Source of the DNA: Thermoanaerobaculia bacterium | GTDB taxonomy: Bacteria > Acidobacteriota > Thermoanaerobaculia > Multivoradales > UBA5704 | DNA: 58,848 nt | Assembly (NCBI GenBank): GCA_044226625.1 | Contig: JBGAGQ010000038.1 | Span: 1-58,848 of the forward strand | Direction of reading: 5' to 3' | In this document: piece after piece, positions 52,139 through 56,098 of the stretch | How the letters are laid out: each line of letters starts with the position of its first letter | Position numbering within the stretch: position 1 is the stretch's first letter | Translations under genes and position numbers: made by a program | The notes under the pieces: generated by a model | Seen by the model: the letters and a program-made list of their open reading frames with translations, nothing else | Told to the model about the DNA's origin: nothing | Databases searched by the model: none

Positions 52139-53515
52139 CTATCGGTTGCGCGCGCGCTGCGCCAGGATCTGCTCCGCCTGCTCCGGCGTCATGTTCGGCC
52201 CGAGCGCAATGCTCAGCACGTCCGTCCACCCGTCGTCGGTCGACTCCCGATAGAGGATCTTGTCGCCCTGCCGCCAGCTGACGATCAGCGAGTCGCCGTG
52301 GGTCGAGGCGTAAACGTTCGGCACGGCGTCGCCGGTGTCGGGGACGGGGAGGGATGCCGCAGTGTGTACGGACAACACATGTCCTGGGGCCGCTACGGTC
52401 GGTTCAGCAGTCGGCGAAGCGAGAACTTCGACCATCTGATAGGTCAGGTTTTGCTGACGCCCGCCTCGACCGCCGAAGGTGTCGGCTCCGATTTCAATGA
52501 TCTGCGCTCGGGTTGCGTCCGCAAGCCGTCGCACCTGGCCGGGGGAGAAACGGGCGCCGATCTCGATGATCTGCGCTCGTGTCGCGTCGGCGATGAAGCC
52601 GCGAATGCTGGGATGAAGGTTCGAGCCGATTTCGATGATCTGAGCTCGAGCCGCATCGGCAAGAGGTGTGATCGGAGAGGGAATCCGGGGATAGGTGAGG
52701 ATCTTCGCTCGCACCCGAGCCGCGATGTCGGATAGATCGACAGGAAGCGCGTCGATCTCCAAAGCGTTCAGTAACCCGGTTTCCGAGTTGACAAAGGTAG
52801 CGACGGTCGTCGAGCCGTCACCGATTTGAATCGAGGGCGCGTGAAGGAGCGGCCCGTTGGGAACGGTCGTCACCCGTAAATCGTTTGACTTGGAGAGATC
52901 GTCAAGCTGGAAGACTGGGTTCCATCCGATGTATTCGCCGTCAATGAGGACGACGGGCGCGTAAACCGCGCGGTCATCGCTACCGGTGGTCTCCCACCAA
53001 ACCGTTTCGACGATCGTGCGGTAATGGCGCGCCGGATTGCCGGTGGCGTCGGGAAGCTCGAAGCTGTCGTGGCTCACCGCGATCCGCGGTGAGCTCTTGA
53101 AGCTATACCGATCACTCGAGATCTGAACCACTTCGCCGAATTGGCTATTGGCAAGGCTGGTGAGGTAAAGAACCGAGTGAAGGGGATTGATTCGACTTTC
53201 CCAGACTAGAAAGATGCTCTTCGCCGATTCTTCGAAGAAGAGGGAAGGGGAGCTCTCGACGTCGTTGCCATTGGTTCCCGGAACCAAAAGGCGCTCCGTA
53301 AGCGGGCCGTTCGGGCCGGGCCTCGTGACATCCAAGGCGAGCACGTTCGAGTCGGATTGAGCGAGCGCTGTAGGGAAAAGATCCCTGAAAATGCCCGTTC
53401 GAATTCGATAGAGGTCGCCGTTGGCGCCAAGAGCGACATCATGGGATTCGCCGTAGGATGGCGAGATGCCAGCCAGCACCAGGACCACAAGGAGGAAGAT
53501 GTTTCGAATCTTCAT
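52139..53515 (-). CDS. Sec-secreted protein of unknown family with three ADA[AT]RAQIIEIG repeats
   Basis: Signal peptide MKIRNIFLLVVLVLAGISPSYG; repeats at 52625-52660, 52556-52591 and 52487-52522 (69-nt period). Confidence 0.85.
   Translation of the reverse strand: MKIRNIFLLVVLVLAGISPSYGESHDVALGANGDLYRIRTGIFRDLFPTALAQSDSNVLALDVTRPGPNGPLTERLLVPGTNGNDVESSPSLFFEESAKSIFLVWESRINPLHSVLYLTSLANSQFGEVVQISSDRYSFKSSPRIAVSHDSFELPDATGNPARHYRTIVETVWWETTGSDDRAVYAPVVLIDGEYIGWNPVFQLDDLSKSNDLRVTTVPNGPLLHAPSIQIGDGSTTVATFVNSETGLLNALEIDALPVDLSDIAARVRAKILTYPRIPSPITPLADAARAQIIEIGSNLHPSIRGFIADATRAQIIEIGARFSPGQVRRLADATRAQIIEIGADTFGGRGGRQQNLTYQMVEVLASPTAEPTVAAPGHVLSVHTAASLPVPDTGDAVPNVYASTHGDSLIVSWRQGDKILYRESTDDGWTDVLSIALGPNMTPEQAEQILAQRARNR
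52487..52660 (-). repeat. Intragenic 69-bp-period repeat encoding ADA[AT]RAQIIEIG x3
   Basis: Motif conserved at protein level with synonymous DNA changes; the 11-aa linkers differ. Confidence 0.9.
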
Positions 53516-53519
53516 CGTC

Positions 53520-54428
53520 TTATGCTTTCAGGTTAATCAGCTTGCGGACATCGATCGCAAGTAGAAAATCAGGAAGGTACTTGTCGCTGGGGAAGAAACG
53601 TTCCTGAAGAGTCCTGAAGTGCTCTCTCGCGCCTCGCGTATCACGTGCCAAGTTTGCCGCTTCACCGAGCAGGTACAGAGCATTCTTTGAGATGTCGTTA
53701 TCGCCGACCGATTCCGCGATTCTCAATGCGATGATGCCGTGCCGATAGGCTGCCTTATATCGCCCTATCTCCAGCATCGCGAAGCAGAGATCGATCCGAG
53801 GATAGCGCTCGAAACCTTTGGCACCCAAGGAACGAAGAGTCCTCAGCGACTGGTAGAGGTGACGGAACCCCTCAGCGTGGCGACCCTCGACAGTTCGGCA
53901 ATAACCGATGTTGTCGAGGATGAGCGCGCGCTCCAGCTTTCGCGAAGGTGGCATCAGCTCGAGAGCTTTCTCGTATTCCGCCAGCGCTTCGTCAAAGAAA
54001 CTGTCTGCGATCAGGATGTTACCGATGCTGTTGTGCGAAACCGCCTGCCAATCCTGCCGGCCGAGGACGATTGCCCGGTCGAGGGATATCCGAGCGTAAA
54101 AGAGGCCCTTCTTCGAGGCTTTCCGAATGTCATGAGCGTTCGCGAGGTTGTGAGCGGCGAGCCAACAATTCTCGAGATCGGTGTTGCGCATCAAAATTTC
54201 ACGCAAGCGGATGAGGTCGCCATCGGCGACCGTTCCCGTCTCGATCTCCAGCGCCGCGAGGTTGCAGAACGCACGATCGATCAGCCTCTCGTCTCCCTCC
54301 TCACGCGCTCGTTCCAATGCCTCTTCAAACGTGCGACGAGCGACATCAAGGTCGCCTCGATTGAGGGACTTGAGGCCGCGCTCTCTTAGGATCTCGTAGC
54401 TTTCGGGGACCTTGCCGATTTCAGCCAT
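53520..54428 (-). CDS. Tetratricopeptide-repeat protein (cytoplasmic)
   Basis: Repeated A..NLA, HNSIGN....FDEAL..YEKAL, LDNIGY, LYLLGE helices; no signal peptide. Alternative start 54449 overlaps the HTH stop (ATGA). Confidence 0.85.
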   Translation of the reverse strand: MAEIGKVPESYEILRERGLKSLNRGDLDVARRTFEEALERAREEGDERLIDRAFCNLAALEIETGTVADGDLIRLREILMRNTDLENCWLAAHNLANAHDIRKASKKGLFYARISLDRAIVLGRQDWQAVSHNSIGNILIADSFFDEALAEYEKALELMPPSRKLERALILDNIGYCRTVEGRHAEGFRHLYQSLRTLRSLGAKGFERYPRIDLCFAMLEIGRYKAAYRHGIIALRIAESVGDNDISKNALYLLGEAANLARDTRGAREHFRTLQERFFPSDKYLPDFLLAIDVRKLINLKA

Positions 54429-54445
54429 AGTCGCTTTATCCCCTC

Positions 54446-54817
54446 TCATACACCCGACTCATCGGTGCGGCGTTCGAGCTGCTCACGTTTGAAGGCCACG
54501 AAATCTTCGACCTCGCGCTGCGCGGCTTCGTCGAGCGCACTCAGATCACGGGCTACCCGGAGAGCGCGAGTCGAAACATCCGGGGCAGGATTCATCTCGT
54601 CGAAAAACTCGCCGATCGAGAGCTTGAACTCGGCGACGATACGAAACAGGGTATCCAGGCTGACCCGGTACTCCCCCTTCTCCATCCGGGAGAGATCGGA
54701 TTGCTGAATGCCGAGACGGGCAGAGAGCTCCACCTGCGTCAACTTGTGGTCGCGGCGAAGCTGCCGGATCTTCCGGCCGACGAGCTGGACCTGGCGAATC
54801 TTGGGAGAAGCGATCAT
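54446..54817 (-). CDS. XRE-family HTH transcriptional regulator
   Basis: VGRKIRQLRR..KLTQ.ELS.RLGIQQSDLSRMEKGE. Confidence 0.92.
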   Translation of the reverse strand: MIASPKIRQVQLVGRKIRQLRRDHKLTQVELSARLGIQQSDLSRMEKGEYRVSLDTLFRIVAEFKLSIGEFFDEMNPAPDVSTRALRVARDLSALDEAAQREVEDFVAFKREQLERRTDESGV

Positions 54818-54839
54818 CGGCTCATCTCGGACGAAGCGT

Positions 54840-54858
54840 CTATGTCAAAATGGCATAG
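54840..54858. promoter_or_regulatory. Imperfect palindrome, candidate operator
   Basis: CTATGTCA-AAA-TGGCATAG (7 of 8 complementary) between the HTH promoter and its start codon. Confidence 0.5.
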
Positions 54859-54877
54859 CGGCGTCGGTTTGGATTCA

Positions 54878-54906
54878 AGAATACCGGTGAAGGCGGCGCC
54901 CGTCAA
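54878..54906 (-). promoter_or_regulatory. Sigma70 promoter for HTH-TPR-secreted protein
   Basis: Minus strand TTGACG-N17-TATTCT. Confidence 0.7.
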
Positions 54907-54925
54907 ATCCGTACGGTTGGGTAAC

Positions 54926-54949
54926 GCCGTGCCCGACCTCGGGCACGGC
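54926..54949 (-). terminator. Strong hairpin just after the peptide stop (terminator or stabiliser; no U-tract)
   Basis: Perfect 10-bp stem GCCGTGCCCG-ACCT-CGGGCACGGC. Confidence 0.5.
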
Positions 54950-54957
54950 TCTGTGGC

Positions 54958-55116
54958 CTAACCGAAGTCGATGATTTCGGCCCGGATATCGGAATCCTGG
55001 TCCGAGGGATCCGGTGCGCCGATATCGATGATCTGAGACCGGATCGATCCGACGACAGCTTCCAATCGTGCCGCCGGTTCAGGCTGCTTGCTATCGGGCG
55101 AGGTGGTTTTCTTCAT
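54958..55116 (-). CDS. Unannotated 52-aa peptide MKKTTSPDSKQPEPAARLEAVVGSIRSQIIDIGAPDPSDQDSDIRAEIIDFG
   Basis: AGAGGAG RBS 7 nt before ATG 55116; TAG at 54958; two motif copies matching the repeats in the secreted protein three genes downstream. Confidence 0.8.
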   Translation of the reverse strand: MKKTTSPDSKQPEPAARLEAVVGSIRSQIIDIGAPDPSDQDSDIRAEIIDFG

Positions 55117-55196
55117 GGACCTGCTCCTCTTTTGGGTCCGCCCGAGGACGATTCCTCGGCGGGTGGCCCGCCCTCAGTGAATCGGCGGGATCTCTA

Positions 55197-55221
55197 ATTT
55201 TAGACAGTCGACGGTCGACTG
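55197..55221 (-). promoter_or_regulatory. Candidate peptide-gene promoter: -10 TAAAAT with a perfect palindrome over the spacer/-35 region
   Basis: TAAAAT at 55197-55202 (minus strand); CAGTCGAC-G-GTCGACTG at 55205-55221; no recognisable -35. Confidence 0.4.
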
Positions 55222-55408
55222 GGCGTTTCGAGGGACGAGTCGCGCGAAGGCCCCTACGAATCGCCTTTTCCGGAGGCCGTCATACGAGGCGATGCCGAAT
55301 TGGGACGGACCGAATAGACTCCGCCGCCGTGACCCACGTTCCCCACCCTTTGGACACGCTTCGCGGAAATGCGTTGACTCGACCGGCACGCTCGGAAAAG
55401 GCGGCGCC

Positions 55409-56098
55409 GTGAGCAGCCATCTCTTCCTCCTCAAGGAGCTCGTTCGGAGGGACGTCAAAGGTCGTTATGCGGGATCGCTCTTCGGCCTGGTGTGGTCGTT
55501 CGCGCAACCGCTTTGGATGCTCGCGCTGTTTGGATTCGTCTTTTCCTCGATCATGAAGGTCCCGGCGGTCGGAGTACGGACCGGCAATTTCGCGATCTTC
55601 CTATTCAAGCTGCGCTTCCCGTCCGAGATCCTGGGGATCGCCGTCGTGCTCGCAGCCCTGGTGCACGAAGGGATCGCGCTCCTGGCCTTCTTCGCCGCGG
55701 TCGCCTGGACCGGCGAGTTGTCCTGGCGCGGTCTGCCGCTCCTCTTGATCGCGATTCCGCTCCAGGTGGGGTTGACGCTCGGGGTCGGCTGGCTGCTCGC
55801 CGCGGTGCACGTCTTCTTCCGGGATGTGGCCCAGATCCTAGGCATGGGGCTCACCGCCTGGTTCTACCTGACCCCCATCGTCTATCCGGCGTCGTTCGTG
55901 CCAGAACGGCTTCGTCCCTGGATCGAGCTCAACCCGTTGACGGGGCTGGTCGGTCTCTATCGCGCCGCGTTGCTCGCCGATTCGCCGCGTCCTTCGGGTA
56001 TGGCTCTCGGCGCTCTCTGTGTCGCGGCGTTTGGATTTTTCGCTCTCGGGGGCTGGCTCTTCCGCCGCCTCAAAGGGAGCTTCGTCGACGAGATCTAG
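55409..56098 (+). CDS. wzm: ABC-2 polysaccharide export permease (Wzm-like) with an apparent in-frame internal deletion
   Basis: ELVRRDVKGRYAGS.FG.VWSF.QPL, FRDV.Q, WFYLTPIVYP, LNP, F.DEI; FAIFLF runs directly into KLRFPSE. Confidence 0.75.
   Translation: MSSHLFLLKELVRRDVKGRYAGSLFGLVWSFAQPLWMLALFGFVFSSIMKVPAVGVRTGNFAIFLFKLRFPSEILGIAVVLAALVHEGIALLAFFAAVAWTGELSWRGLPLLLIAIPLQVGLTLGVGWLLAAVHVFFRDVAQILGMGLTAWFYLTPIVYPASFVPERLRPWIELNPLTGLVGLYRAALLADSPRPSGMALGALCVAAFGFFALGGWLFRRLKGSFVDEI

Follow-up and report, generated by a model that had tools for sequence, protein, structure and literature searches.

The peptide gene and its sequence features

We analysed a small gene on contig JBGAGQ010000038.1 of a Thermoanaerobaculia bacterium (phylum Acidobacteriota; genome G000 in our set), a stretch of 58,848 nucleotides (nt) that we call the window throughout. 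The product, MKKTTSPDSKQPEPAARLEAVVGSIRSQIIDIGAPDPSDQDSDIRAEIIDFG, has 52 amino acids (aa) and carries two R-x-x-I-I-D-x-G motifs whose starts lie 19 residues apart. The gene stands directly upstream of an overlapping pair of genes encoding an XRE-family helix-turn-helix (HTH) protein and a tetratricopeptide repeat (TPR) protein, which are followed by the gene for a 458-aa protein with repeats of a similar motif. A preliminary description of the window had reported the open reading frame (ORF) behind AGAGGAG-N7-ATG, the two spaced motifs with the second at the C-terminus, a Pro/Asp/Ser-rich linker between them, a hairpin 8 nt behind the stop codon, and a sigma-70 promoter serving the downstream HTH gene separately. 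All of these are present, on the minus strand:

54958..55116, minus: small ORF of 52 aa with ATG start, TAG stop included
55124..55130, minus: Shine-Dalgarno sequence AGAGGAG, 7 nt before the ATG
55045..55116, minus: peptide residues 1-24, a basic N-terminus and L-x-x-V-x-G-S, a putative double-glycine-type leader (20-member alignment compared with the pattern in the available part of PMC6363468)
55018..55044, minus: motif 1, IRSQIIDIG, residues 25-33, read from the sequence
54988..55017, minus: linker APDPSDQDSD, residues 34-43, variable in length, with all indels in frame
54961..54987, minus: motif 2, IRAEIIDFG, residues 44-52, the exact C-terminus, read from the sequence
54926..54949, minus: 10-bp GC-rich hairpin, beginning 8 nt past the stop, with no T-run behind it
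54878..54906, minus: sigma-70-like promoter assigned to the XRE operon, TTGACG-17-TATTCT, past the hairpin and ahead of the XRE gene
54841..54857, minus: near-palindrome TATGCCATTTTGACATA, candidate XRE operator, between the XRE promoter and the XRE start
55142..55159, minus: inverted repeat (CCGAGGA-N4-TCCTCGG) that precedes the peptide ribosome-binding site by about 25 nt

The ATG is the first start codon of its open frame. In a six-frame translation of the whole window, the pattern II[DE][IFLVM]G occurs five times, twice in the peptide ORF and three times in the ORF of the 458-aa protein. Family-wide positions were indexed on 20 members, 18 from protein libraries and two found in genomes. 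Gly is the last residue in 17 of them; two have 2-4 additional residues and one ends in Y. The window's peptide, on reading, has neither a hydrophobic core nor a twin-arginine motif, and a Sec or Tat signal was rejected for this reason; the absence of a hydrophobic signal peptide had been stated before and is borne out.

Homologues, constraint and distribution

A search with the single peptide returned full-length, stop-free matches in four genomes of the same genus (G001, G003, G006 and G007; E 2.7e-6 to 8.1e-9), all upstream of the same XRE and TPR genes, and no match below E 0.03 in the remaining 56 genomes searched. With a profile of the five sequences, the small ORF was found in 5/8 genomes of the genus and the two-motif peptide in 0/84 genomes of ten other genera of the family; the remaining six hits of this profile lay within frames of 455-512 aa and are repeats of the 458-aa protein. 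Across 401 genomes of the class, the peptide profile found small ORFs within the cluster only in G000, G001 and G011. Among the genus genomes without a match, G002 has just 120 nt between its XRE and ABC-2 genes, the 385 nt between these genes in G004 hold no motif-bearing frame, and G005, whose genome is 85% complete, gave no peptide match. A peptide remnant was looked for in the XRE/ABC-2 intergenic regions of G002, G004, G009, G018, G114 and G115, and no motif-bearing frame was found there.

Protein libraries of 5.8 billion clusters yielded 13 small family members. An exhaustive hidden Markov model (HMM) search of 1.84 billion representatives gave 19 matches. Twelve of these are small (49-57 aa), another four (P0046, P0202, P0201 and P0203, the first two of them inspected) match the 458-aa family in length or represent a fragment of it, and three are unrelated repeat proteins that we took as spurious. 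The small members across the libraries number 18 in total. Public records of metagenome-assembled genomes already call homologues "hypothetical protein", so the term "hidden" in the preliminary description was an overstatement. The names of homologues in public sources also point to the Acidobacteriota, class Thermoanaerobaculia. A look-up of the peptide in the ESM Atlas gave no usable match.

The coding sequence bears the marks of selection on the protein. All indels among the five genus genomes are multiples of three, and variable sites number 27, 17 and 35 (of 48 each) at the first, second and third codon positions, the third being the most variable. The ratio of nonsynonymous to synonymous substitution (dN/dS; NG86) was 0.14-0.75 in nine of ten genome pairs, mostly 0.25-0.35, and dS in these ranged from 0.3 to more than 1; the remaining pair was saturated. 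Thus the conservation and dN/dS check proposed with the preliminary description came out in favour of a gene, with stop-free full-length homologues, in-frame indels and retained motifs. The peptide evolves fast, at about 50% identity, against 92-94% for the XRE protein within the genus. The reverse-complement frame is likewise open in 4/5 genomes, and such open frames are frequent in DNA of 67% GC content.

The surrounding signals are conserved as well. A purine-rich equivalent of the Shine-Dalgarno sequence (GAAGGG/AAGGA) is kept in 5/5 homologous loci, in line with the earlier view of a genuine small gene with its own ribosome-binding site. The hairpin after the TAG, GCCGTGCCCG-AGGT-CGGGCACGGC, folds at -30.4 kcal/mol (z = -4.39; 0/200 shuffles as stable), and its stem is kept in 5/5 loci while the loops vary; a terminator scan did not call it, because no T-run follows the stem. 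Judged from these comparisons, the 52-aa ORF is a real protein-coding gene, since full-length homologues stand in synteny, indels are in frame, dN/dS is below 1, and both the ribosome-binding site and the hairpin are conserved.

Additional DNA of about 1.3 kb lies between the peptide and ABC-2 genes in G001 and G003 (loci L005 and L004) and holds a conserved ORF of 122-151 aa on the opposite strand; the region upstream of the peptide gene therefore differs between genomes.

Regulatory elements around the gene

The XRE promoter TTGACG-17-TATTCT is the sole promoter-like site in 54300-55500 (0.2 expected) and is kept in 5/5 peptide-bearing loci and also in peptide-less genomes. The near-palindrome TATGCCATTTTGACATA is invariant in all five aligned genus loci, differs by 1-3 bases in four loci of other genera, and occurs once in the window and once in the whole 6.6-Mb genome, allowing up to 2 mismatches. 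It is probably an auto-regulatory operator of the XRE protein. The inverted repeat upstream of the peptide gene is present in all five loci with altered stem letters (CGGGG/CCCCG in others) and could be an operator or a structure of the 5' untranslated region. An Rfam scan of 54700-55400 returned nothing but a sub-threshold chance match.

The XRE-TPR-propeller cluster

The genes next to the peptide gene are the following:

54446..54817, minus: XRE-family HTH protein, 123 aa (PF01381, E 4.5e-12)
53520..54449, minus: cytoplasmic TPR protein, 309 aa when counted from the first in-frame ATG (302 aa with the start at 54428 that gene callers choose)
52139..53515, minus: 458-aa secreted beta-propeller-like protein with a four-helix insert, 4 nt after the TPR gene
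52625-52651, 52556-52582 and 52487-52513, minus: three copies of x-R-A-Q-I-I-E-I-G in the 458-aa protein
55292..56098, plus: ABC-2 permease, transcribed divergently

The peptide ORF ends 140 nt before the XRE start. An FG-GAP repeat protein gene is also divergent from the cluster, alongside the ABC-2 permease. The 458-aa protein has a signal-peptide-like N-terminus and no Pfam domain. In its AlphaFold2 (AF2) model (pLDDT 87.3), residues 27-256 and 360-437 are rich in beta structure and give weak Foldseek matches (E about 3e-4, TM 0.2-0.36) to six-bladed propellers such as sialidases, GH93 and PLL lectins. The insert, residues 259-348, forms four helices, and the motif copies lie at the helices' C-terminal ends. 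The model of the TPR protein (pLDDT 92.8) is a superhelix of seven repeats whose best fold matches are peptide-binding TPR proteins: LGN/Pins (TM 0.6-0.72), RapJ-PhrC (4gyo, TM 0.72) and RapI (4i1a). Many Asn and Tyr residues are invariant in the TPR family.

The TPR gene occurs, mostly in single copy, in 272/301 genomes of the class, a tally that takes in five genomes marked as unpublished. The next gene downstream codes for a homologue of the 458-aa protein in 30/30 fetched loci, and an XRE gene was detected upstream in 21/30. These distributions suggest that the XRE-TPR-propeller trio is old, core and conserved across the class. In 19/30 order-level loci, the ABC-2 permease gene and the XRE gene form a divergent pair, so the permease may belong to the same unit.

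Several features of the cluster were noted in passing. The ABC-2 permease of the window genome is without about 27 residues, in frame (SGLLPWMAVQEG...SLVK), that are present in the orthologues of G006 and G007. Several genomes of the order carry two TPR copies 2-5 kb apart on one contig (for example G028:C263, G038:C4, G050:C1, G059:C19 and G251:C1), which suggests tandem duplication of a TPR + propeller module. Comparison of the motif copies (window 52487-52651, loci L022-L025 and L030-L034, proteins P0001-P0059) showed that the 2-4 copies carried by any one homologue of the 458-aa protein share the same, or almost the same, amino-acid sequence and differ at synonymous sites, and that variants across species include RAQIIEIG, RSEIIDFG, RSAIIDIG, RSHIIDIG, RNQIIEIG, RAQLVDLG and others. 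On this sequence pattern, the motif repeats are in concerted evolution, via selection or old gene conversion.

Probable origin from the propeller protein's repeat

The motif shared by the peptide and the 458-aa protein extends into homology. Aligned with hhalign against a 57-member profile of the 458-aa protein, the peptide profile matched with a probability of 95.3% (E 2.4e-8), and peptide residues 14-52 aligned to residues 258-297, the first two helices of the insert. Peptide profiles also match the repeat region of 458-aa-type proteins in searches of genomes and libraries, and each helical repeat unit ends in R-x-x-I-I-D/E-x-G. Residues 14-52 of the peptide thus appear to be two helical repeat units of the insert in the propeller protein, copied into a free-standing form. 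The proposal in the preliminary description of a "precursor or decoy" gains on its decoy side, the peptide being homologous to helices of a secreted protein; the accompanying claim that the precursor had no double-glycine leader did not hold up (see below).

The peptide gene would be a young, lineage-restricted offshoot of the deeply conserved XRE/TPR/propeller cluster with its divergent ABC-2 permease. The trio appears old and the peptide young because the TPR gene is found in 272/301 genomes of the class, whereas the two-motif peptide is found in 5/8 genomes of the genus and in 0/84 from other genera of the family. From these distributions, descent probably ran from the large protein to the peptide and not the reverse.

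The putative leader and the exporter

The N-terminal part of the peptide resembles the leaders cut by C39 peptidases. Counted back from the putative cleavage site, position -2 is Gly in 20/20 members and position -1 is Gly in 19/20, with Ser in the window's copy. Position -4 is Val in 17/20 and Ala in the other three, and position -7 is Leu in 18/20, the two exceptions having V and I. An acidic residue stands at -8 in 9/20 and Arg in 8/20, the window's copy among the latter; F, V or I stands at -12 in 7/20 and L at -11 in 6/20, and the window's copy has Glu at -12. The leader has a charge of +3 to +5 and the core one of -2 to -6, each in 18/20 members. In its available sections, the eLife study of LahT150 (PMC6363468) reports that PCAT-type leaders terminate in Gly-Gly, Gly-Ala or Gly-Ser, that ComA recognises L(-12)-x3-E(-8)-L(-7), and that substrate residues V-4, L-7 and L-12 occupy a hydrophobic groove of the peptidase. 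Distant family members (for example ...RRLAEELALVQGG and ...EVAAAEIEVVHGG) fit these rules fully; the genus subfamily fits them only at -1, -2, -4 and -7.

We therefore disagree with the preliminary description on one point. It had stated that there is no double-glycine leader, yet 19/20 members have G-G and L(-7)-x-x-V(-4)-x-G-G is the best-conserved feature of the N-terminus; as the family leader matches the C39 peptidase pattern in the parts of PMC6363468 available, the likely non-Sec route is the very one that had been excluded. The family has, putatively, a leader of the double-glycine type.

Relatives at another position in the cluster carry the same element. In genus g5, ORFs of 46-49 aa with a single motif were found in 2/41 genomes (G011 as query), about 110-150 nt downstream of the 458-aa gene:

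L083:1501-1647, minus, equal to G011:C94:14380-14526: single-motif relative
L086, about 1501-1638, plus, from G073:C57: single-motif relative

Both keep E-L-x-x-V-K-G-G, a Pro-rich spacer and one C-terminal motif (CRTHIVDLG and AGAHIIDVG). Motif 1 is missing from both, which means that conservation of the leader-like element does not depend on the repeat. The family profile also cross-matches a Cys-containing GG-leader peptide in G089, which adjoins two ABC-transporter genes without a C39 match.

The window's genome encodes a single C39-peptidase ABC exporter, on contig C93 and preceded by an HlyD-family gene:

G000 C93:130014-134380, plus: HlyD-family gene with an N-terminal GAF domain, then a C39 + ABC_membrane + ABC_tran gene with a D-C-G active-site motif

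No precursor gene was noticed beside it. Two tandem peptides with clear GG leaders (...ETVRRL.G.E[ML]AA[VI]AGG) and Cys-rich cores lie on a further contig and are likely bacteriocin or RiPP (ribosomally synthesised and post-translationally modified peptide) precursors, candidate substrates of the single C39 exporter:

G000 C4:57634-57819, plus: first GG-leader peptide
G000 C4:57956-58144, plus: second GG-leader peptide

Possible functions of the peptide

We tentatively favour, at somewhat less than even confidence, the reading that the gene specifies an exported peptide of about 28 residues acting as a free mimic of the propeller protein's repeat. The precursor would be recognised by the genome's single HlyD + C39-peptidase ABC exporter, cleaved after Gly23-Ser24 and exported as an acidic two-motif peptide. 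In the envelope or outside the cell, it would serve as a soluble mimic or competitor of the repeated helix motif, binding either the surface normally taken by the propeller helices or the helices' own partner. This reading builds on the gene itself, its homology to the repeat, the leader-like pattern and the intact exporter; cleavage, export, the place where the peptide acts and its target are inferred. A complex prediction with the TPR protein, the mature 458-aa protein and the peptide scored 0.08, the mark being 0.32; it gave no verdict and is not used as evidence.

Several observations weigh against this proposal. The motifs of the peptide and the variant in the propeller protein of the same genome are identical in 0/7 genome pairs, which weakens the case for tight co-evolution with one shared partner. 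By identities of the 458-aa protein, G002 and G004 fall amid peptide-bearing genomes, and both are without the peptide; the gene is dispensable. The window's copy is the least canonical of the family (G-S, Glu at -12, a leader charge of only +1), and its genus subfamily has Arg at -8 and Pro at -10 or -11. Curated double-glycine and bacteriocin leader models in Pfam and NCBIfam matched 0/13 members at E up to 10, the sole NCBIfam match being weak and unrelated (YacG, E 0.19). In the hhalign alignment, the leader's L..V aligns to L..I of the first insert helix, so that the resemblance to a leader could be inherited from the parent helix. The exporter lies on a different contig from the peptide and is found in 89/92 genomes of the family, with or without the peptide, which makes its presence non-discriminating. 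Finally, the one metatranscriptome run found, X1, gave one contig, which covers only 54592-54872 at 95-99% identity, diverges beyond and leaves the peptide ORF uncovered. It represents the XRE gene of a relative and is uninformative on the peptide.

Among the alternatives, an unlikely one is that the 52-aa product stays uncleaved in the cytoplasm as a microprotein, its motif segment lying in the groove of the TPR protein and altering the action of that protein on XRE, and thereby tunes the operon. This would be a partner switch resembling the Rap anti-repressor/Rco/Phr* circuit of plasmid pLS20. The place of the gene directly upstream of the overlapping XRE and TPR genes suits such a role, as do the peptide-binding proteins (LGN/Pins, RapJ-PhrC and RapI) among the best fold matches of the TPR model, the plentiful invariant Asn and Tyr residues and the missing Sec signal. 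Nevertheless, the TPR-XRE pair is near-universal in the class (272/301) and in most genomes functions with no peptide present, which excludes the peptide as its ancestral ligand. A cytoplasmic role also leaves the invariant G-G with V-4 and L-7 unexplained, and it sits poorly with a peptide at about 50% identity beside an XRE protein at 92-94%.

The same neighbours could be read as an RRNPP-like quorum-sensing system with a split receptor, in which a pro-peptide is exported, trimmed to its C-terminal motif, re-imported and sensed by the TPR protein, which would control XRE; the repeats of the secreted 458-aa protein could then be a second, ancestral source of the signal. We regard this as improbable. 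The pro-peptide gene adjoins HTH and TPR genes, the TPR fold is Rap-like, and the motif stands at the exact C-terminus in 17/20 members, a placement known from Phr, PapR and SHP-type pro-peptides. Motif copies that are identical within the 458-aa protein and variable between species also follow the pattern of a multi-copy signal precursor. However, the HTH (123 aa) and TPR (309 aa) proteins come from separate genes with no fusion, the TPR gene is a conserved, mostly single-copy core gene and not a variable accessory, most receptor-bearing genomes are without the peptide, and the motifs of peptide and 458-aa protein match in none of the seven same-genome pairs. In addition, the available part of a survey describes such systems in Gram-positive Firmicutes (PMC10075063).

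A bacteriocin or RiPP precursor, exported through C39 and perhaps modified by unlinked enzymes, with the likeness to the repeat functionally meaningless, is in our view quite improbable. The double-glycine-type leader of the family, the C39 exporter and the two clear GG-leader, Cys-rich peptides elsewhere in the genome (C4:57634-58144) speak for it. Against this, the locus has no modification enzyme, immunity gene or exporter, and both subfamilies are fixed beside the XRE-TPR-propeller cluster. The core has no Cys or Lys and few Ser/Thr, at non-conserved positions, and its acidic, Pro-rich composition sets it apart from known class II bacteriocins.

A peptide without a function of its own is very improbable. 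The ORF would then be what is left of a partial duplication and now decaying, or else an upstream ORF that is translated only to control how far transcription reads through the hairpin into the XRE operon. In favour are the loss of the gene in G002 and G004, the hairpin, which stands so close behind the stop (8 nt) that a terminating ribosome would overlap it, and the reverse-complement frame, open in 4/5 genomes. Against it, the amino-acid sequence is conserved beyond the frame, dN/dS staying below 1 even where dS nears saturation, and variation is greatest at third codon positions. Moreover, 18 small library members and two relocated relatives share the architecture, and the XRE gene has a conserved promoter and a probable operator of its own past the hairpin.

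A bolder extension of the signalling idea is a long shot, to which we give very little credence. Here R-x-x-I-I-D/E-x-G would itself be a peptide signal, the propeller copies being the released units, the GG-leader peptides cheaper or interfering versions, and XRE + TPR the intracellular receptor. If true, it would amount to RRNPP-like peptide communication in a Gram-negative phylum, in the class Thermoanaerobaculia of the Acidobacteriota.

Significance and comparison with known systems

A literature search, which supplementary files lay outside, found no paper on the peptide family or on the XRE-TPR-propeller cluster. To our knowledge, mimics made from gene fragments are well known in plants, in animals and as laboratory tools, and are rarely documented in bacteria. 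If the exported-mimic reading is true, the peptide would be a natural bacterial case in which part of a gene has turned into a small gene in its own right. A stretch coding for two helices of a secreted protein would have gained a ribosome-binding site and start codon, an export leader and a hairpin resembling a terminator, and the product would be a soluble copy of its parent's interaction motif. Furthermore, our analysis points to an uncharacterised, class-wide XRE-TPR-propeller cluster in Thermoanaerobaculia whose repeated motif appears to evolve in concert.

Several known systems resemble the locus in part. RappLS20/RcopLS20/Phr* of pLS20, as presented in the available parts of PMC7641744 and PMC7430634, likewise combines an XRE-type repressor, a TPR protein without an HTH and an adjacent small peptide gene, and the TPR fold here is like that of Rap proteins. 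Phr precursors, however, use Sec signals, which the peptide does not have, and unlike Rap/Phr the TPR-XRE pair is here a class-wide core pair that mostly goes without a peptide gene. Set against the definition of RRNPP systems, a small gene does adjoin the receptor gene. The receptor of such systems, however, is one protein with an N-terminal HTH or equivalent output domain fused to the TPR domain, and here it is divided between two genes; nor do the TPR gene and the peptide gene occur together as a pair. An attenuator leader ORF, in which the peptide would be free to vary outside its regulatory codons and the next gene would rely on read-through, does not describe the gene either, given dN/dS < 1 with conserved motifs and an XRE gene with its own conserved promoter and probable operator.

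The closer parallels are of two kinds. Like the GG-leader peptides of PCAT/AMS exporters (ComC/CSP, class II bacteriocins and class II microcins), the family has precursors of 49-57 aa in which a basic leader is set off from the core, G-G closes the leader (G-S in the window's copy) behind V-4, L-7 and, in part of the family, E-8, as in the available sections of PMC6363468, and an intact C39 PCAT with an HlyD partner is encoded in the genome. It differs from PCAT substrates in matching no curated leader model, in lying away from the exporter, which for such peptides is mostly a neighbouring gene, and in its core, an acidic, Pro-linked double motif from a neighbouring secreted protein that is neither bacteriocin- nor pheromone-like. 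The second parallel is with microProteins and dominant-negative fragments, small single-segment homologues of larger proteins that, in the available parts of PMC9638782 and PMC9245647, are expected to act via the interaction surface shared with the larger protein. Examples of these are mostly eukaryotic transcription-factor mimics or laboratory fragments, whereas the parent here would be a secreted bacterial propeller from the same cluster, and the mimic would carry an export-type leader. By analogy, the peptide is thus most like a PCAT-exported GG peptide in its working and most like a microProtein in its origin.

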